From Calditrichaceae bacterium (lineage in GTDB: Bacteria > Calditrichota > Calditrichia > Calditrichales > JBFXGD01): a stretch of DNA of 64,000 nt. This document shows, one piece after another, positions 2,710 to 12,261 of the stretch. The stretch lies in assembly GCA_050173015.1 (NCBI GenBank), contig JBFXLE010000015.1, positions 31,463 through 95,462 of the forward strand. Direction: 5' to 3'. How positions within the stretch are numbered: the first letter of the stretch is position 1; each line of letters begins with the position of its first letter. The notes beneath the pieces were generated by a model, which was given only the letters and a program-made list of their open reading frames with translations, ran no database searches and had not been told where the DNA came from. A program made the position numbers and the translations under genes.

Positions 2710-5487
2710 CTAAATTTTATACCCAAACAAGACCGAATAAATGATTAATAGAATCAGGATAATTCCTATGGAAAGGAACGTAAATCCCAACACATTAATA
2801 AACCGTTCCCTGCGTTTCGATATGTACTCTTTTACGACGATCTTCTTTAACGCGCCGCTCTTTTTAAGTTCAGCATAATCTTCGGGACGATCCTTCATAT
2901 ATTCCTCAACGGGCACAAGTCCCGTAAAAATAACCTTATCCATCGGGAAGGCTTCGGGTCTAAGGTGTGTGTTAAAAAAATGAATGGTAAAAATAAACCC
3001 TACCGCCAGCAACGCCTCATCACTATGAATAATCGTGGCCACATTAATCAGCCAGCCCGGGAAAAATTTTGTAAAAAATTCGGGGAACCATAGCATCAAA
3101 CCCGATAAGCCGATCACCGCCACCCCCCAAAAAACAGCAAAATAGTCAAATTTTTCCCAGTATGTCCATTTACCATAATCCGGTCTTTCTCCCTTCCCCA
3201 GAAACCATTTGACTGTTCGCCAAAAATCGACGGCGTCTTTTTTGTTGAACATCATGGAATCACGCCCGAATATAAAATCTTTCCAGGGGGTTTTACGGCT
3301 CATCTTTCTTTTAAATAACTGATAAAGATGACTTGTAAAATAACCCGCCGTCAATATTGCCGCGAATCGATGAATCCATCCTGCCGCCTCTACACCGCCG
3401 ATCATTTTCGCCAGGTATCCGGCCCAGGGCATTCCCGAAAACTTTAGCATCATACCGGTCAGCGCTAACAGGATAAAACTGATAATTACAAATATATGCG
3501 TGAGTCTTTGTGAAAATTCAAAGCGCCGTATGTAATATCTTGTCTGCGGCTCTTTTTGCTTTTTCTTTCTCTCTCTCAAATGGCGAAACGAACGGGGAAG
3601 CCACAGAAGCGTATGTATTCCAAAAAATCCGAAAACACTCACAAGCAGGATTGTCATTGCCCAGTAGGTGTAATAAAGGATTGGATATTTTACCGGGTCA
3701 TGATGCGTGGCATGGGTCAGATATCCGGTAAAGCGCTGATTAGCGTCATCATGACATTTTTGACAGGTCGAAACAATATGATGCATCCCGACACTGGAAT
3801 TCGGATCGTTAATACCAAAAATAAGATGAGAATTATGACAGTCGGAACATTTAGCCGATTTAAGATAACCAAGCTGATAAGTTTTTCCATGCATGGTCTG
3901 CAAATAAGTTTCGGAAAGTTCTCTATGGCAGGTTCCGCATTGATCCGTCACCTCGGTCATAAACTGATCTTTCTCCACCTCGGTGATCTTGTGTGAAGAA
4001 TGACACTGTGTGCATGTCGGGAGCTTTTCCATTTCCCTCTCATCCACTGAAAAATGAATGCTCTTTGTGTAATCCTTATAGATCCCTCTATGACAGGTGG
4101 CGCAAGTCGCCGGAATATTTTTGGGGTGGACCGATGAACGGGTATCCTCGTGATTAAGCTCCATATGCGCGGTATGACAATCCGTGCAAACCGCGCTCGG
4201 CAAAAGTCCCTTTTCGGTAAGGCCCCTGCCGTGAACGCTTTTTGAGTAATCGAATAACGCGTTCGTCTCAGATAAATGTCTGGTCTCTTCCAGACTACTG
4301 TCTGAACGATGGCATCCCCCGCACAATTTCGGGATCGCCGCCCTGTAAGTATTGGATGTTTCATCCAGTGATGATTTTGTATCATGATATCCATGGCAGG
4401 CAATACAGTATGGCACATGCCCGTTTCCCTGCTTATAACCTTTCCCGTGCCCGCTGGCCGCGTATTCTTCGCCTATTTTAATATGGCAGCTTGAACAATC
4501 CACGGGACCGACTGTTTTACAGGGGCGTTCCAATTGCGGATTAACATCAGAATGGCATTTTACGCAGGTCACTTCATTGTGAACCGATTCAGAGATAGTA
4601 GTCTTAGAGACCTGCAGGCTGACAATTTCACCATCTTTGAGTTTATGGATATTTTGATTGTCATGGCATTTAAGACACGATCTGTCAGATACTTTTAAGG
4701 TTAATGATTCCTTGCGCGCTTTATGAGGTAGATGGCAATCGGTGCAGGCCGGGATTGATCCCGGATCGCTGCTCCATTTTTCACCTTCAATTACTTTTAC
4801 ATGAACATCCTCGATACGGCTGTGACATTTCATGCAGGTGGACGCTATATTCCTTGGCGAAATTGAGGATTTGGTATTGGTATGAGGCAGAATAAAGTGA
4901 CTTCTATGACAATCGGCGCACGCGGCGCTGACGATCAATCCTTTTTTAAATAAACCTTCTCCGTGAATACTCAAGCTGTAGTTTTCGAGAATATTATGTT
5001 CTGTGATATTATAAACACGGGCCACCGGGGCGCCTTCCCGGTGACATTTACCGCAAAGAAAAGGAATGTTCATTTTATAAGACGGAGATTTTGGATTCTC
5101 CGGTGAGAGGATATCATGTTTTCCATGACATTCACTGCAATTCGGAGCATAGATTTCTTTTTGTTTTAGCGCCAGGCCGTGAATCCCCGAATCGAATTCA
5201 AGCTGAATATCATCATGACAATCACCACAATGGACAGGATTTAGCCGTTCCGGATGCGGAAACTCTTCCACATCCGCGTCGGGATGACAACTTGCACACT
5301 CCACTCCTTTATGCACAGAATTTTTAAGATCAGAAGGATTGATATAAAGGGAAACCATCCTGTTTCCGCGCTGAACAGTTAGCTCGGGATCAGAATGACA
5401 TTCAAGGCAGGTTTCGTCATCGACAGCATATAGATTACTGCCGGCTAACAGCATTAATAATGTCAGCCAGATTTTCATCATATTCAT
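2710..5487 (-). CDS. Multiheme cytochrome c (19 CxxCH) fused to a cytochrome b membrane domain; CbcL/CbcA-like quinol oxidoreductase
   Basis: Signal peptide and 19 CxxCH counted by hand, then TM helices with [35 protein letters not shown] and IHFFNTH. Start chosen at MNMMK; the ORF track starts at 5508. Confidence 0.85.
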
Positions 5488-5618
5488 CCATAGTACTCTG
5501 GAACACAATTGCTACATTTATAAAAATCCGGTTGCCGGTCCAAAAAATTTCCCTTCTCCGAAGACAGAAAATTCAAATGCCATTTTGGAATTGGAGCGGC
5601 AACCGGTTAATAAATACC

Positions 5619-7541
5619 CTAAATTTTGGGTTGATGTGAATTGTCTTTTTGCTCCATCAGCTTTTCATACTCAAGCGGATGATGATGTTTCATTTCATCC
5701 AAAGTAATTTTCCCATCCATCCAGGTGGTACTCATCGGATATTTTTCAGGATGAAGAATAACAAAAAACCAGTGCCAGATTACGATCGCCAGAGTAGCCA
5801 GCCATGCTTCGTAATAATGAATCACCTCCGATGTTTCAAATAACCAGGTTGGGAGAAAACCGATAAAAAATTCAGGGAACCACAACACCAGACCGCTTGC
5901 CCCCATCACAATCACACCCCATATCAAAGCAAGATATTCCGCTTTCTCGGCATAATCGAATCGACCAAAGCGAGGTCGCTCCTTGCTCAATCCCAGATAA
6001 AAAGAAATATTTTTCCATAATCCGATCACATCATCCAGTGTCGGCATTAATTCTATTAATTCTCTTCGTCCTTTCTGAGTAAACAGAAGATATCCCAGTT
6101 GAACCACTGAGATTGTACCCATAACAACCGCCGCGACTCTGTGGGTTACGGATCGTATGGCCTCTGTCATACCGAGTGAAACAAGTAGTTTTACCCAGCC
6201 CGCTTCCGGAAATTTCAGCGCGAAGCCTGTAATCGCCAGCAAGGTGAAACTAAGAAACATCAACATGTGCTGATAAACTTCGAACGACTGAAATCTCGGC
6301 ACTCGCTCAGCATACTTATCAGCTTTTCTTTTTTCACGGATATGATGCACAAGGATGATCAGATTGTGGATAAACATTCCGCCGATCACAACAACAATCA
6401 TCCATATATATAAGTTTTTAAAAAAGAAGGCGATAGGATTTCTGACCTGCTGATTTATCGGATGCACATCAATTTTAACAAAACTTTCCGAAATATTCGC
6501 GTGACATTTGCCGCATGTTTCCTGCAGATGCGCGGGATGAACACTCGCCAGACTATCCGATTTTGATTTGATCGCGTGTGTTTCATGGCAGCTTGTACAG
6601 GTTGCCGCTTCAGGAGATCCCTTTAGCGCGGCCAATCCGTGATAACTTTTCATATAGGAATCAAGTCGCTCAGCATCCAATCCAAACCTCGACATGAGTG
6701 TTGGAGAAGAATGACAGCTGGCGCATAGTTTCGTGGACTGAAGAAGACCGCTGGTCGTCGCGTTTTTATCTGATGCCATCTTTATATCGTGTTCACCGTG
6801 ACAGTCTGTACAAACCGGTGATTCTCCATGCCCACGCTGCAATGAATTCCAATGAATACTGTCATGATATTCATCTTTTTCACTTTCATGACAAGTACCG
6901 CATGTCTCCGGTATGTTCAGGGCGTTCAAATGTGATTCAGGATTGATGGCCGGTAAGATCGCATGATAATCATGACAATCCGTACAGGTTGCCACCTCTG
7001 CCTCGGGATCTTCGGTAATCATTTTCCCGTGAACACTTTCAAGATAACTTGCAACCGGATTCACGTTTCTTCTGCCGAACAGACGAATAACTTCCGGCTT
7101 GGCGTGACAAGACGCGCATGTATAGGCCAGGTTTCCATGATGGACTTTCGACTCCGTCTCATCAGAACTCAGAATATCATGAACCCCATGACAATCCGTA
7201 CATTTTGCGGCTGCCTCCGAACCCTTTGCCAACGCCTGTCCGTGAATGCTCCGGTTGTATTCTTCCTGGGCATCCTCATGACATGTGGCACAATTCACAG
7301 GGGTAAGAATCTCTTCATGAGGCAATTCTTCGATACCCTGATGACAATCGATACACTCAAATCCACCGTGAATGGAATTCTCGAAATTTTCCGCATGTAC
7401 AAAAACAGAAACTTCCGTAGTGTCATTAATCATCCTTGTCAGATCCGGATCGCTGTGGCATTCCATACAATCTTCGTTGGACTGTCCAAAAGCAAACACC
7501 GCGGCTGCGAATAGCAATAATAATACTCGTTTCAAAAGCAT
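5619..7541 (-). CDS. Multiheme cytochrome c (11 CxxCH) fused to a cytochrome b membrane domain; CbcL-like
   Basis: Signal peptide and 11 CxxCH; membrane domain with YQH, THRVAA, YAEKAEYLALIWG, IHYYEAWLA and WHWFF. ATG at 7541 follows GAGGAA. Confidence 0.85.
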   Translation of the reverse strand: MLLKRVLLLLFAAAVFAFGQSNEDCMECHSDPDLTRMINDTTEVSVFVHAENFENSIHGGFECIDCHQGIEELPHEEILTPVNCATCHEDAQEEYNRSIHGQALAKGSEAAAKCTDCHGVHDILSSDETESKVHHGNLAYTCASCHAKPEVIRLFGRRNVNPVASYLESVHGKMITEDPEAEVATCTDCHDYHAILPAINPESHLNALNIPETCGTCHESEKDEYHDSIHWNSLQRGHGESPVCTDCHGEHDIKMASDKNATTSGLLQSTKLCASCHSSPTLMSRFGLDAERLDSYMKSYHGLAALKGSPEAATCTSCHETHAIKSKSDSLASVHPAHLQETCGKCHANISESFVKIDVHPINQQVRNPIAFFFKNLYIWMIVVVIGGMFIHNLIILVHHIREKRKADKYAERVPRFQSFEVYQHMLMFLSFTLLAITGFALKFPEAGWVKLLVSLGMTEAIRSVTHRVAAVVMGTISVVQLGYLLFTQKGRRELIELMPTLDDVIGLWKNISFYLGLSKERPRFGRFDYAEKAEYLALIWGVIVMGASGLVLWFPEFFIGFLPTWLFETSEVIHYYEAWLATLAIVIWHWFFVILHPEKYPMSTTWMDGKITLDEMKHHHPLEYEKLMEQKDNSHQPKI

Positions 7542-7551
7542 TAATTCCTCA

Positions 7552-8439
7552 CTACTTTCCATGACAGGTGACACAAACTATATCCGTATAAGCATCATTG
7601 TGACAACTCATACAATTATCAAAATCAGACCGCCCGGCTCTCGCGTGCCTGCCACCGTTACCCGGTACCGTGTTTGACCAGTTTGCAAAAGCATGATTTT
7701 GAGGCATGACTCTCTCGGCCTGATGGCAGTCGATACAGAATGAGAATTCTTCGTGACAGGTTAAGCAATTCTCTTTATTTCCTTTAGCCTGCATTCCGTG
7801 AGTCTGCCTGAAATTAAGCGGATGTACCTCGCGATTCAAATTATCACCTTCATGACATGTAGTGCAATAATTATTCTGATGACAGTGATTGCAGGAAGTC
7901 GTCTGTGACATCATACCATGATCTTTTTTCCAGTTAAGCCGGTGAGTCTCCGGTACAAATTTCATTTCCGATTCATGACAGGTTAGACATGCCTGCTTAT
8001 TCTCACTGTAGTCCTGATTTTCATGGCAATTCGCGCAGACCTGACTATCAGGTATATGCAGGGTACCGACCTTTTCTTTTTTATCAATCCCCTGGTGGCA
8101 GGTCTGACAGTTTACTTTACCTGAGACATGTGTCTTGTGTGGAAATTTGCTCCCATAATCCACAACACGCTGAGCAATACCCGGTTCATCCGGATTCGTG
8201 TGGCACATTGCGCATTCTACTTCATCCGGACTATGGCAACTGTTGCAGGTCTCCATTGCCGGAAGCAAATTATCCGCCTGCGAAAGACTGCTATTCGCGT
8301 TGGCATGACAATCTGTGCAGGCCGCGCCGACATCTTCCGCATGTAATTGATGCGAGAAAATAATCTGATCCGGAGCCTGCGCATTGGCAAAACCGGTCAG
8401 ACAGAACAATACTATGGTTATAAATGATAAGCCTTTCAT
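7552..8439 (-). CDS. Periplasmic dodecaheme cytochrome c (cytochrome c3-like)
   Basis: Signal peptide (ANA), FSHxxH and FPHxxH motifs, 12 CxxCH. Confidence 0.9.
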   Translation of the reverse strand: MKGLSFITIVLFCLTGFANAQAPDQIIFSHQLHAEDVGAACTDCHANANSSLSQADNLLPAMETCNSCHSPDEVECAMCHTNPDEPGIAQRVVDYGSKFPHKTHVSGKVNCQTCHQGIDKKEKVGTLHIPDSQVCANCHENQDYSENKQACLTCHESEMKFVPETHRLNWKKDHGMMSQTTSCNHCHQNNYCTTCHEGDNLNREVHPLNFRQTHGMQAKGNKENCLTCHEEFSFCIDCHQAERVMPQNHAFANWSNTVPGNGGRHARAGRSDFDNCMSCHNDAYTDIVCVTCHGK

Positions 8440-8452
8440 ACGACAGCACCTT

Positions 8453-9649
8453 TTACCAAATGAAATGAATATGGTTTAATATACGTTGATCCGAGTCTTT
8501 CTCCCGGTTTGTCAGCCACTGATATTCCAGATCAGCGCTCCAGTTCTTTGAGAAACTATATGACGCTCTGACCGCGTTTGCCAGCTGATCTTCGTAATCA
8601 TATACTTCTTCATAACGGTATTGTGAATAGTCCACACTGAGAGAAGCCAGAAGCTTTGGTGTGACCTGGTATCCATAATCAACCGTTACGCCTGTTTGAT
8701 CACCCAGATCACCGGTTTCAAAAATAAATCCCAGCGTTCCATTGGAATTATTCAGCGTCAGCAGTACCCGCTGCGCGTCTCCGTCTTCCAATTGAAGAAA
8801 CTGATATTCCGCGCCAAGATAGTATTCGTCTGTCAGCGCATAGGAACCGTTAAACGCGCTTAAAGTATAGGATTCCACGTCAAAGATACGGAAATAGGAA
8901 TCGCCGTAAATTTGCGGATGCTGCTGCTTAAAGTATAGATTCGCGCTAAATTTATCAGACATCCGGTATCTTCCCGACACATAGAAACGATGCAAACGGT
9001 CATTTACCAGATCATAATGAGTCTGCAACATAATTTTCAGGTTGTTAACTGATGAGTTGTATAAATTCAGCCCGGCGATTTGCCACTGCGTTTCCCCGGA
9101 ATGCGTTTTTTGAAGATATACGCCCTGAATGTCCGTGTCATAAAAATTTTTATATTTCAGAGCCGTCCCGTAAACAGCCGCGTCGTCGGATTCGTAGATC
9201 TCAAAAGCTTTGTTAAAGTGAGATTCGACACCGCCATATAACTGCCATTCCACGTTCCTGATCGGACGGAAAATCATATTCAGACCATCAATACTCCCCA
9301 GAACCAATCCGGGATGCAGAAATTGCCTTCCTAATTCGAAGTCCATCAGATTATTAAACAATCCCTTGCCGGAGATGGACATACGGTAAGCGTTAAATCT
9401 TCTTTCATCCGCAAGATCTTCATCAAGATCGGTGAGAATCCGGCCTGACATATTAAATCTGAGATCCCCCCACTCCTTCAGCCCGGCCTGAAAACGGACA
9501 GTCTGATACAAACGGGTATGTGATGTGGTATCTTCGTATGAATATACTGTATTCGAAATACGTCCGTTTGTCTGAATACCCTGGGCAAAAAGATTCAATG
9601 CAAGAAAACCCAGTACCATAATGCTAGTTAAAACAATTTTCGTTTTCAT
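8453..9649 (-). CDS. Outer-membrane beta-barrel (porin of a porin-cytochrome complex)
   Basis: Signal peptide; Tyr/Gly-rich alternating beta-strand pattern; GRQ motif; C-terminal aromatic HIHFIW; flanked by multiheme cytochromes. Confidence 0.75.
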   Translation of the reverse strand: MKTKIVLTSIMVLGFLALNLFAQGIQTNGRISNTVYSYEDTTSHTRLYQTVRFQAGLKEWGDLRFNMSGRILTDLDEDLADERRFNAYRMSISGKGLFNNLMDFELGRQFLHPGLVLGSIDGLNMIFRPIRNVEWQLYGGVESHFNKAFEIYESDDAAVYGTALKYKNFYDTDIQGVYLQKTHSGETQWQIAGLNLYNSSVNNLKIMLQTHYDLVNDRLHRFYVSGRYRMSDKFSANLYFKQQHPQIYGDSYFRIFDVESYTLSAFNGSYALTDEYYLGAEYQFLQLEDGDAQRVLLTLNNSNGTLGFIFETGDLGDQTGVTVDYGYQVTPKLLASLSVDYSQYRYEEVYDYEDQLANAVRASYSFSKNWSADLEYQWLTNREKDSDQRILNHIHFIW

Positions 9650-9671: not shown

Positions 9672-9704
9672 AAAAAGAGGCGGATTCAAAATAAAATCCG
9701 CCTC
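9672..9704 (-). terminator. Intra-operon terminator-like hairpin
   Basis: GAGGCGGATT/AATCCGCCTC inverted repeat followed by a U-run on the minus strand. Confidence 0.6.
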
Positions 9705-9720
9705 CGGATTGGCTTAACAC

Positions 9721-11112
9721 TTATCTTTTTTGAACGACAACATTTTGATTTGCCGCTTTTTCCTGGTCTAAAAATTGCTGGAGACTTGGATCGCTCACAC
9801 CAATTGTCAGAGAATCTTCACGCAGGAAATATTTATCGCTGTTTCCAAGGAAAGTTCCAACGTTATGACAGGTTCCTCTACCGCAGGATACGCCGCCGGT
9901 TGTGTCTGTCATAACCGTCCAACGCCTTATATTATGGGGCGTGGCGTATTTCCAGGTCGGTTCCGCGGTAAAATTAGCAAGCGAAATACTGCCACCCCAA
10001 TTGTCATAGGTGTCCGGAACAATCGGAATATGTCTGACCGGAGCGAAATCGTATGGGCGGGTGGCGCTTTTAAGATAATTTTTACCAATTTTAAAGGTGA
10101 GATAAGATGACCCGGTGATGCCGGCACCGTCAACATGACAGCCATTGCAATTCTTGTAGGCTTGAGAATGGCAGGTCTGGCATGATAATTTTGATCCATT
10201 TCCAGACCAATGCTGATTGTGATAAGCATTTGAAGTAGCTACGTCAGCATGACAGTCTTCGCACTTGGCGGTGATCGGTGAATCTTCAATATAACGATAA
10301 TCATACTGATTACCGTCGCCGTGCATTTCGTGGCCGTCGTGACATAACATACAATCATATCCTTTGGCGGAATGGACATCCATGTAGATTCCTTTATCAC
10401 TGTGAGCCCCGGTATATTCTTCCCCAACACGTGAGCCGTGACACGCGGTACAATTGCTTGTCTGATTTGGCGTTCTTCTGAATGCATGTCCTGATACCAG
10501 ACCACCATTGACCGAGCGCGGTTTACTGATGTGGCATTCGCCGCAGGTGGCGTGACATTTCGCGCAGTCTTTCGTAAAACCCGCGACCATCGCGTCATCA
10601 GTTCTGAGATCCATTCCACCCGATCGCACTTCAAATCTCTGGTGATAGCCTTCCTGAGTGAGATGCAAACTTGTTTCAAAATTTGACACTTGCTGCGAAT
10701 GGCAGGGACCACAATAGGTCTCAGCATCTGTTAAAGACGGATATGGCACTAAATTATTGTGCGCGTCCGTTTTGGTAAATTCTTCAGGATTACCTTTATG
10801 GCAAGCGGTACACCCTAGATTCCCGTGTGTGGAAGTAAGAAATTCGGTTTTTACAAAAACACGTTCCCATGCCTCAACCTGAGGCACTGTGCCGCCTCAG
10901 CCCTCGCCGGATTCACCGCCGGTATCGGGAAGAGGATCGGCAACCTTGATAAGTAAATCTTTGTCTGTATGACAGCTGACACAACTGGTTTCATCCACAG
11001 AAGCGAATTTCTTCGTTTCTACCGGATATTTTTCTTCACATGCTGTCATCCATGTGACCGCGAAAACGAAGAGGACAAGAAGAACAATTTTTCTAAACAT
11101 GACCTTATCCAT
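9721..11112 (-). CDS. Probable selenocysteine-containing multiheme cytochrome c lipoprotein (463 aa; Sec72; 10 CxxCH plus CX4CH)
   Basis: ORFs 10897-11112 and 9721-10887 share a frame and are separated only by TGA-GGC-GGC-ACA (ESGEG*GGTVPQVEAWERV). The upstream part supplies the only signal peptide/lipobox (MTAC) and CVSCH. A SECIS-like hairpin follows the TGA. Confidence 0.85.
10869..10887 (-). promoter_or_regulatory. Putative bacterial SECIS element
   Basis: mRNA GUGCCUCA-GGU-UGAGGCAU forms an 8-bp stem starting 10 nt after the UGA, with a G-containing apical loop resembling the E. coli fdhF SECIS upper hairpin (GCAGGUCUGC). Confidence 0.75.
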
Positions 11113-11149: not shown

Positions 11150-11185
11150 AAAAAACAAACCAGGCTCATCACCTGAGCCCGGTTT
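11150..11185 (-). terminator. Intra-operon terminator-like hairpin after the rhodanese gene
   Basis: AAACC-GGGCTCA...TGAGCCT-GGTTT on the minus strand, followed by a U-run. Confidence 0.55.
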
Positions 11186-11223
11186 ATACAACATTTATAA
11201 TTAAGAAAGATCAAACACCCATC

Positions 11224-12261
11224 TTATGGATTAACTCCGGTTGTTACCGGGTAGTCATGACCGGTTGCTTCGCTGAATGGCGCTACTCCGCCTCTTGCCG
11301 CTGTGCTCTTTGTCCATGACATGATGCCATGTTTTAAATTGACAGCATTATATCCAAGAAGATTCAAGGCCGTAGTAGCGATACCACCGGTATGCCCTGT
11401 ATAACAATATACAACAAGGAGGCGAGTCGGATCAATCTTTTTTAAATTATCTTCACTGGCGATTTCTTTCCAGGGAATATTAATCGCGCCCGGAATATGA
11501 CCGATAGCATAATGGTCAGCGGAACGTACGCTTATGATCTGTGGATCATTACTGGTATCACCATCATTGATCACTCCATGAAGAACATCCGCATTGTAAG
11601 TTGCAGACCCTAGTGATGCATAAAGATCAGCTGCCGCCAGCATAATTTCATCAGCATTTGTTGATGAACTGAATTCCGGATTAGCCAGTTCATATGTTGA
11701 GGATGCATTAATTGTTGTTTCAATTTCATAATCAAAACTGGTCGCTTCACTGAACGGCGCTACTCCGCCTCTTGCCGCTTCATCTTTGGTCCAGTCCATA
11801 ATACCAAACTTTAGATTGTAAGCGTCATAACCAAGCGCGCGCAAGATCGTTGTCGCGACACCACCGGTATGGCCAGTATAACAATAAACGGCGATTTTTC
11901 CATTATTCGGGATCGCGGCGATTCTCGCGTCAAGAGCTGCAAGTTTTTCAGTTTTCGCGATATCCCTCCAGTTGATATTGATCGCGCCCGGTATATGCCC
12001 GGCTTCATAATGAGCAGCGCTTCTGACACTGACTACCACATAATTGTTTGAATCATCACCATCATTAATATTGTCATACAAAACCTGAGCTGTCATGATA
12101 GGAGTAACAGCTACATTTACGCTAGCGTCCACAATCGGCTGGAGTACATCAAAATCACTTGTAACCGTGCTGCTGCCGCCGTCATCGCTGTCATCAGAAC
12201 AACCGATAAACATGGCAAACATTAGAGCAAAAATGAAGTACATTAATTTTTTTACCAACAT
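11224..12261 (-). CDS. Tandem rhodanese-domain (sulfurtransferase) lipoprotein
   Basis: Lipobox FIGC; two copies of SVRS..HY..GHIPGAINI and two active-site loops VYCYTGHTG. Confidence 0.9.
   Translation of the reverse strand: MLVKKLMYFIFALMFAMFIGCSDDSDDGGSSTVTSDFDVLQPIVDASVNVAVTPIMTAQVLYDNINDGDDSNNYVVVSVRSAAHYEAGHIPGAININWRDIAKTEKLAALDARIAAIPNNGKIAVYCYTGHTGGVATTILRALGYDAYNLKFGIMDWTKDEAARGGVAPFSEATSFDYEIETTINASSTYELANPEFSSSTNADEIMLAAADLYASLGSATYNADVLHGVINDGDTSNDPQIISVRSADHYAIGHIPGAINIPWKEIASEDNLKKIDPTRLLVVYCYTGHTGGIATTALNLLGYNAVNLKHGIMSWTKSTAARGGVAPFSEATGHDYPVTTGVNP

Follow-up and report, generated by a model that had tools for sequence, protein, structure and literature searches.

In a 64,000-nucleotide stretch of a Calditrichaceae bacterium genome (GenBank assembly GCA_050173015.1, contig JBFXLE010000015.1, positions 31,463 to 95,462; hereafter, the window), the minus-strand segment 11112-9721 is almost certainly a single gene. 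It encodes a 463-aa lipoprotein cytochrome in which an in-frame UGA is almost certainly read as selenocysteine (Sec, U72) by SelA, SelB, SelD and tRNA-Sec under the direction of a hairpin. This Sec-cytochrome belongs to a large, multi-phylum family whose kinship with octaheme tetrathionate reductase (OTR) is distant, which shows no relationship to the selenoprotein MccSep/ExtKL and whose genes lie beside a rhodanese gene. As for its function, which we infer by analogy, we lean slightly toward terminal respiratory reduction of sulfane sulfur or selenium in concert with the rhodanese.

Across the junction, the minus-strand codons read GGC GAG GGC TGA GGC GGC ACA GTG CCT CAG. A 71-aa open reading frame (ORF; 10897..11112, ATG start) and a 388-aa ORF (9721..10887, GTG start) lie in a common frame with only the TGA at 10899-10897 between them, and translation of this TGA as U gives 463 residues, with U72 and no further stop. 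A preliminary description of the window had proposed exactly this arrangement of two ORFs split by a TGA, and both the sequence and the read-through agree with it. The same description had placed a lipoprotein signal and one CxxCH heme motif upstream of the TGA and nine CxxCH motifs without an export signal downstream, which the translation reproduces: the 388-aa piece contains nine heme motifs yet has no signal peptide. It had also argued against a global code change, and indeed 7 of the 30 non-overlapping window ORFs of at least 250 aa terminate in TGA, so that TGA is an ordinary stop in this DNA. The features of the gene are as follows.

9721..11112, minus strand: whole gene for the predicted Sec-containing multiheme c-type cytochrome lipoprotein, 463 aa, stop codon TAA at 9723-9721; full-length homologs were found.
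11038..11112, minus strand: signal peptide and lipobox (..WMTAC25), with the Cys25 codon at 11040-11038; C25 is invariant in 47/47 sequences.
10969..10983, minus strand: heme motif 1 (residues C44-V-S-C47-H48), on the 5' side of the Sec codon; invariant in family alignments.
10897..10899, minus strand: UGA, predicted Sec72, in the invariant motif G69-x-G71-U72-G73-G74; from the alignment of relatives.
10798..10812, minus strand: heme motif 2, C101-T-A-C104-H105, followed by K and G107; from the family alignment and the OTR profile alignment.
9724..10758, minus strand: OTR-like core, approximately residues 118-463, hemes 3-11; from profile, hhalign and structure alignments to OTR.
9865..9885, minus strand: C410-x4-C415-H416 (CGRGTCH, 410-416), probable 11th heme site; C415 and H416 are invariant, C410 is conserved in at least 90%.

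The term decaheme, used in the preliminary description, holds for the CxxCH motifs, ten of which lie in the 463-aa frame (one, at C44, before the TGA and nine after it), and probably falls one short of the heme total, which would be 11 through the C-terminal Cx4CH site. The spacing of this last site differs within the family (CxxCH, Cx3CH or Cx4CH), and many homologs contain at least 11 CxxCH motifs. In the 47-sequence alignment, only nine His residues are conserved outside the motifs, against 11 heme sites, and thus at least two hemes would not be bis-His ligated through conserved histidines; the alignment contains no invariant spare (non-motif) Cys beyond the lipobox C25. By inspection, a hydrophobic stretch followed by Cys is found at the N-terminus of almost all homologs. 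AlphaFold modeling of the cytochrome yielded a predicted local distance difference test score (pLDDT) of 84.8 and a predicted template modeling score (pTM) of 0.79. Larger members with 12-13 CxxCH motifs and approximately 505-545 aa occur in Anaerolineae (L102, L110, L112, L118, L120, L122, L125, L128-L130 and L132), one of which, L122, is longer through a second TGA; these motif numbers suggest heme gain in some lineages of the family. The lipoprotein-type signal is retained in these Chloroflexota members. Chloroflexota-type organisms are often considered single-membraned.

To assess conservation of the in-frame TGA, a six-frame search of 61 related genomes was employed, with strong matches defined by E ≤ 1e-50. 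The search returned 36 strong loci, 32 of which contained exactly one in-frame TGA, three contained none and carried Cys instead, and one contained a TGA together with a TAA. When 20 such loci were aligned, 18/18 TGAs shared one column within G-[EG]-G-U-G-G, the other two sequences having Cys. A pattern scan of species-representative genomes extended the collection to at least 599 stretches, at least 587 of them confirmed; in the best 80 of the confirmed loci, the Sec column was occupied by TGA in 67, Cys in 11 and Arg in 2. Residues G69, G71, G73 and G74, the lipobox Cys and all heme motifs, before and after the UGA alike, were invariant in 47/47 diverse sequences. A FastTree phylogeny was built from 111 rows (97 Sec, 14 Cys; 104 distinct), with L051, L077, L080 and L105 dropped by a filter. 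On this tree the Sec/Cys state changes only twice, giving one Cys clade of 13 and a single Cys member, L067, among Sec forms. The nested member (L067:1962-3248, Cys codon TGT) keeps a hairpin resembling a selenocysteine insertion sequence (SECIS; -13.8 kcal/mol), as expected after a recent Sec-to-Cys change, and looks like such a conversion. Another gene copy (L056, G042:C10:142178-143403) is in pieces, with a TAA besides the TGA, and is probably a pseudogene.

The second line of evidence is a hairpin downstream of the UGA, defined by single folding and covariation and resembling a bacterial SECIS (bSECIS).

10869..10887, minus strand: bSECIS-like hairpin with an 8-bp stem, GUGCCUCA / UGAGGCAU, and a GGU loop (10879-10877).

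The loop begins at nt 21 when numbering starts from the U of UGA, and the fold has an energy of -11.3 kcal/mol over 27 nt. In most bSECIS elements the apical loop lies 16-37 nt from the UGA (PMC13188914), and since the loop start falls within this range, the hairpin fits bSECIS geometry; the 3' position, the loop distance and the loop G are all those of a bSECIS-type stem-loop. The GTG that serves as the start of the 388-aa ORF (10887-10885) falls within the stem. Covariation was analyzed on an ungapped alignment of 32 Sec-type sequences, using a 6-bp core, slid-stem controls and 500 shuffles. In the core, 81.7% of cells were paired, compared with 34-53% in the slid controls, and the covariation score was reached by 0/500 shuffles. 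Both partners vary at three of the six core pairs (six replacements of U-A by C-G and four of G-C by C-G), and some compensations combine a synonymous third-codon change with a non-synonymous change opposite, as in GCU...GAG to GCC...GGG. Folded singly, all Sec forms (32/32) had the hairpin, its loop beginning at nt 20-25 and reading GGU, GUU or AGUU; the mean folding energy was -10.35 kcal/mol in these 32 sequences versus -1.57 in the three Cys forms, and 95% of synonymous recodings were beaten by 17/32 Sec forms versus 0/3 Cys forms. The stem differs considerably in sequence in other phyla, where a hairpin is nevertheless present. A minimum free energy (MFE) hairpin that pairs the UGA itself (CUGAGGCG/UGCCUCAG) was rejected as the SECIS, its pairing not being kept in homologs.

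The genome from which the window derives (97.5% complete) contains selA (516 bits), selB (362 bits), two selD genes and tRNA-Sec (69 bits), all scoring above curated cut-offs. By comparison, selA was found in 0/3 Cys-type genomes (98, 98 and 85% complete) versus 2/2 Sec-type genomes tested. The two selD copies lie on contigs C2:247845-248780 (L012) and C27:38679-39602 (L011) of this genome (G000). One of them has its own in-frame TGA, so that SelD itself is likely a selenoprotein; the other lies within a 738-aa open frame and is thus probably fused to another domain.

In public protein databases, 1769 relatives were detected at E ≤ 1e-20. Among the best 120 of them, nearly all are 350-390 aa long with approximately 83% query coverage, which indicates that they have been cut at the UGA, and only Cys forms are full length. 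The names in these best 120 are "hypothetical protein", "cytochrome c family protein" and, in Joint Genome Institute (JGI) entries, "thiosulfate/3-mercaptopyruvate sulfurtransferase". The JGI name, given to truncated fragments (P0032, P0035, P0092, P0101 and P0114), describes the function of the neighboring rhodanese; it may have been carried over during annotation or else point to fused forms. NCBIfam has no model that covers the Sec-cytochrome family, and the available part of the 2026 selenoprotein catalogue lists no such family (PMC13188914). No description of the family was found in the literature, the supplementary homolog and candidate lists (PMC13510729, PMC13188914 references) lying outside the search; the supplement of PMC13510729 holds 637 MccSep homologs, which could include members of the family.

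Known heme-related selenoprotein families were next compared with the Sec-cytochrome. The 2026 review names three of them, ExtKL (NF040886), GSU2204 (NF041027) and OTR (TIGR04315, GenBank-annotated) (PMC13188914), and none of these three models matched the 463-aa protein at E ≤ 0.01. At the same threshold, NF041027, the model of the GSU2204 CXXCH selenoprotein, matched neither the cytochrome nor the 398-aa barrel protein encoded beside it. Pfam and NCBIfam yielded only generic multiheme matches and a weak ExtM match (37 bits versus a cut-off of 800). MccSep is a Sec-dependent multiheme polysulfide reductase of Geobacter sulfurreducens (GSU2937-2936), described as a soluble periplasmic tetramer with five hemes, an Ig-like domain, a heme-ligating Cys239 and, within a DGUP loop close to the C-terminus, a Sec, and occurring mainly in Desulfobacterota and Nitrospirota (PMC13510729). 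Identity with MccSep/ExtKL was rejected, as the architecture differs and NF040886 (cut-off 250 bits) matched neither the protein at E ≤ 0.01 nor the locus at E ≤ 10. Elsewhere in the genome, a gene approximately 13 kb from its true OTR (C31:34179-34889; L058, L059) gave a weak match to the ExtKL model, at 30 bits far below the cut-off. The Sec-cytochrome family adds another widespread lineage to the multiheme cytochrome selenoproteins. The remaining expectations of the preliminary description agree with these results: TGA or Cys in one column between conserved flanks, a 3' hairpin, which turned out to be conserved and covarying, a selA, selB, selC and selD complement, and database entries reduced to truncated hypothetical proteins; its question of whether the protein is related to ExtKL or separate is answered in favor of a separate family.

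The relation to OTR is visible only with a family profile and VIA-align. Against solved structures, the family profile retrieved the OTR structure 1sp3 (Shewanella SO4144) at E 1.8e-8, and VIA-align superposed residues 93-463 of the cytochrome model on residues 1-429 of the 1sp3 chain (Z 9.2, root-mean-square deviation 4.1, 258 residues; next row 3.8). The hhalign probability was 97.2% against the true OTR of the same genome and 97.8% against a 10-sequence OTR profile. Foldseek with the cytochrome model returned nothing from the PDB at E ≤ 0.001, and a single-sequence search of solved structures returned only cytochrome c7 at E ~0.4. Given that profile and fold match yet TIGR04315 (cut-off 375 bits) is silent at the locus, even at E ≤ 10, the family is best regarded as a distant OTR relative outside the curated family, with a shared OTR fold and heme core. 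The true OTR of the genome is encoded on another contig (C31:20688-21950, L142) and scores 584 bits, with no in-frame stop. The undecaheme OmhA (PMC9250108) is not the same protein (Z 3.2).

Hemes 6-9 of the Sec-cytochrome align robustly with OTR hemes 4-7, and the N-terminal part can be aligned in two registers. In the first (score 101.0), hemes 1 and 2 correspond to OTR hemes 1 and 2, and the eGUGG loop is an insertion that sits in the OTR segment bearing Lys56 and the Cys of the NNFC motif. In the second (score 100.5), hemes 3 and 4 take the place of OTR hemes 1 and 2, and residues 26-117, comprising heme 1, the Sec loop and heme 2, form an N-terminal add-on; the range of the structural alignment favors this second register. 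The counterpart of OTR catalytic heme 2 has two candidates, heme 2 (C101) or heme 4 (C183). No conserved Lys or Cys lies opposite the OTR Lys and NNFC Cys in either register, the N-terminal sub-alignments reaching only 14-20% probability. In OTR itself, Lys56 is the ligand of catalytic heme II (PMC3769277), and the NNFC Cys was invariant in 10/10 OTRs. A true OTR from a Thermodesulfobacteriota genome (L162:1501-2853; G087:C66:7608-8960; 584 bits) has Sec at this Cys position (NNYU), which shows that selection of a Sec-favoring kind acts on the chalcogen residue next to the catalytic heme of OTR. The same Thermodesulfobacteriota genome also carries the Sec-cytochrome family (L072). In the phylum of the window, no in-frame stop was present among the OTR matches listed (35 of 86 genomes with OTR). 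In at least eight genomes of one clade, a true OTR gene and the Sec-cytochrome gene share a contig, 8-10 kb apart (G030:C54, G016:C63, G008:C68, G018:C306, G027:C28, G010:C12, G023:C47 and G036:C32), which hints at a larger sulfur-compound respiration island.

The genomic context of the gene is dominated by a tandem rhodanese. The corresponding features of the window are:

11224..12261, minus strand: tandem-rhodanese lipoprotein, 345 aa, with lipobox FIGC21 and CYTGHTGG loops at C127 and C286; from library matches and translation.
11155..11187, minus strand: terminator-like hairpin between the rhodanese and cytochrome genes; from a consensus scan only.
9676..9705, minus strand: terminator-like hairpin after the cytochrome gene; from a consensus scan only.

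A tandem-rhodanese gene adjoins the cytochrome gene on the same strand, up- or downstream, in 105/115 loci, and six of the ten loci without it end within approximately 250 nt of the gene on one side. The lipoprotein signal was present in 64/64 full-length rhodanese partners, and C21 and the two active-site Cys, C127 and C286, were invariant in 42/42. The ExtH model matched the rhodanese weakly (23.5 bits versus a cut-off of 200).

Downstream of the cytochrome gene, the window encodes four further proteins:

8453..9649, minus strand: outer-membrane beta-barrel, 398 aa, with signal peptide, 22 strands and C-terminal ..HFIW; homolog in 30/115 loci.
7552..8439, minus strand: secreted multiheme cytochrome, 295 aa, with 12 CxxCH motifs by reading; homolog in 30/115 loci.
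5619..7574, minus strand: fusion of multiheme cytochrome c and membrane cytochrome b (FdnI/HydC type), 651 aa; 22/115 loci.
2710..5508, minus strand: second fusion of multiheme cytochrome c and cytochrome b (FdnI/HydC type), 932 aa; 19/115 loci.

The barrel model had a pLDDT of 86.6 and gave 373 PDB matches at E ≤ 0.001, including porins, Occ channels, AlgE and ushers; because homologs were found in only 30/115 loci, the barrel is not a constant feature of the family. The 651-aa fusion is a probable quinol dehydrogenase; its ORF shares 23 nt with the end of the 295-aa gene, and the two fusions are consecutive. The barrel, the periplasmic cytochrome and the lipoprotein cytochrome are encoded together in the window as a candidate outer-membrane module of the porin-cytochrome type.

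We hypothesize the following mechanism for the Sec-cytochrome as a reductase of sulfane sulfur or selenium, modeled on the Sec/heme chemistry of MccSep, in which the Sec selenolate (U325) is a nucleophile beside a heme (PMC13510729), and on the active-site Cys or Sec of OTR. Quinol electrons would pass through the multiheme/cytochrome-b fusions to the 12-CxxCH periplasmic cytochrome and from there to the Sec-cytochrome, the outer-membrane barrel possibly serving for substrate entry or lipoprotein anchoring. Sulfane sulfur (from polysulfide/S0, thiosulfate or tetrathionate) may be taken up by the rhodanese in the form of a Cys-persulfide, or selenium as a perselenide, whereupon the Sec72 selenolate, on its Gly-rich mobile loop, would attack the S-S (or S-Se) bond. 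A neighboring catalytic heme would then reduce the Se-S adduct, releasing sulfide. Sec72 could thereby play the part taken by the active-site Cys, sometimes Sec, of OTR and by U325 of MccSep.

Several observations weigh against this interpretation, some touching the decoding and others the function. The assignment of U72 is drawn from sequence comparison, and 15/32 Sec forms fall short of outscoring 95% of their synonymous recodings. RNAalifold on the 32-sequence alignment found only a 4-bp stem, with no covariation, and missed the SECIS stem, in part owing to the 1-nt shift in register that three sequences require; the fold of an 81-nt window was no better than shuffles (z -0.42), and its MFE hairpin includes the UGA. 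Two divergent members, L077 (~5100) and L105 (~8200), have Arg (CGG and AGA) directly before GG at the Sec column, which means that the residue is not indispensable everywhere; either it is dispensable there or the function is different. Where the Sec loop sits with respect to the catalytic heme of OTR is ambiguous, the two registers scoring 101.0 and 100.5, and the loop is modeled at low confidence (pLDDT ~61-71, with residues 66-68 below 50). Among the ten loci that lack the rhodanese, four are flanked on either side by 1.7 kb or more, and the terminator-like hairpins that flank the gene weaken the case for cotranscription of the cytochrome with the rhodanese. The barrel and cytochrome partners were present in only 19-30 of the 115 loci, many of which are short. 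Finally, we infer rather than observe the substrate, the direction of electron flow and the contact of Sec72 with a heme or the rhodanese.

It is possible, though unlikely, that the selenoprotein serves chiefly to conduct electrons within a porin-cytochrome complex toward extracellular acceptors such as metal oxides or electrodes, in which case the Sec would be structural, metal-binding or a potential-tuning heme ligand and the rhodanese would serve only maturation or the supply of Se/S. In the window, the lipoprotein cytochrome does stand beside a barrel, a periplasmic multiheme cytochrome and cytochrome-b fusions, and a Pfam match to MtrC/MtrF domain II/IV was obtained at 35 bits. Across the family, however, it is the rhodanese that accompanies the gene and far less often the barrel and cytochromes; the closest fold is that of the enzyme OTR and not that of MtrC (6r2q, Z 3.0), and pairs of Sec and Cys forms are typically seen at catalytic redox positions (PMC13188914).

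We regard as quite unlikely a selenoenzyme that acts on a nitrogen oxyanion or hydroxylamine, or that detoxifies selenite or tellurite, instead of respiratory sulfur reduction. Precedents come from both comparison enzymes, OTR also reducing nitrite and hydroxylamine (PMC3769277, PMC13510729), and MccSep reducing selenite (PMC13510729), while the ext cluster affects selenite/tellurite reduction (PMC5877670); the weak matches of the cytochrome to ExtM and of the rhodanese to ExtH point the same way. Yet both matches lie far below their cut-offs, and a rhodanese that is almost always present suggests a substrate of sulfane sulfur or selenium rather than nitrogen.

A rather improbable variant of similar standing would make Sec72 an axial selenolate ligand on an OTR-type catalytic heme (His/Sec heme c), replacing both the Lys ligand and the active-site Cys of OTR, with the substrate passed on as a persulfide or perselenide by the rhodanese lipoprotein. 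To our knowledge, no natural His/Sec-ligated heme c has been described. If such a heme and rhodanese handover existed, they would amount to a protein-to-protein sulfur-relay respiration in Calditrichota, KSB1, Chloroflexota and many uncultured lineages.

Hardly credible, lastly, is a UGA read through without selenium, as Cys or Trp, or acting as a true stop that yields a 71-aa monoheme lipoprotein and a separate 388-aa protein: gene callers do produce exactly these two pieces, and the case for Sec is built on sequence, but the downstream piece has nine heme motifs and no signal peptide, the junction is conserved at the protein level across phyla, the hairpin covaries, the three Cys forms folded lack it, no selA was found in the Cys-type genomes, and the 97 Sec and 14 Cys rows need just two state changes on the tree.

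Multiheme cytochrome selenoproteins were experimentally shown only in 2026, with MccSep. The Sec-cytochrome family constitutes a second, unrelated lineage, or a third if Sec-type OTRs are counted, with a far wider phylum spread. Its correct annotation would alter the respiration and the need for selenium that are predicted for Calditrichota, KSB1, Anaerolineae, Dehalococcoidia, Phycisphaerae and others, and the fixed pairing with a rhodanese provides a concrete hypothesis for sulfur or selenium respiration in uncultured sediment and groundwater lineages. The family can also be viewed as a natural experiment on the placement of a catalytic chalcogen around an OTR-type heme core.

In Wolinella succinogenes, the periplasmic rhodanese-like Sud is a polysulfide-sulfur transferase that feeds the polysulfide reductase PsrABC. 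The concept is similar, with a secreted rhodanese-type carrier handing sulfane sulfur to a respiratory reductase; Psr differs in being a molybdopterin enzyme, with no multiheme cytochrome and no Sec loop. MccSep, likely a functional analog of the Sec-cytochrome, is likewise a multiheme cytochrome c selenoprotein split at an in-frame UGA by gene callers; in contrast to it, the Sec-cytochrome has 11 heme sites, an N-terminal Sec, a lipoprotein signal and another taxonomic range. The Geobacter extHIJKL...P cluster encodes the rhodanese ExtH, the porin ExtI, the Sec-cytochrome ExtKL, multiheme cytochromes and a cytochrome b (PMC5877670), a parts list that matches the cluster in the window, though the two Sec-cytochromes are unrelated. 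With OTR, the family shares distant sequence and fold homology, and both are multiheme cytochromes of a catalytic type; OTR, too, has a chalcogen residue near an N-terminal catalytic heme, which can itself be Sec (NNYU). OTR has eight hemes whereas the Sec-cytochrome family has 11 heme sites, and unlike OTR, the Sec-cytochrome is a lipoprotein with a constant rhodanese partner. A GxGUGG loop holds the Sec of the cytochrome, 29 residues ahead of heme 2, whereas the OTR residue lies 10 residues before the catalytic heme motif.

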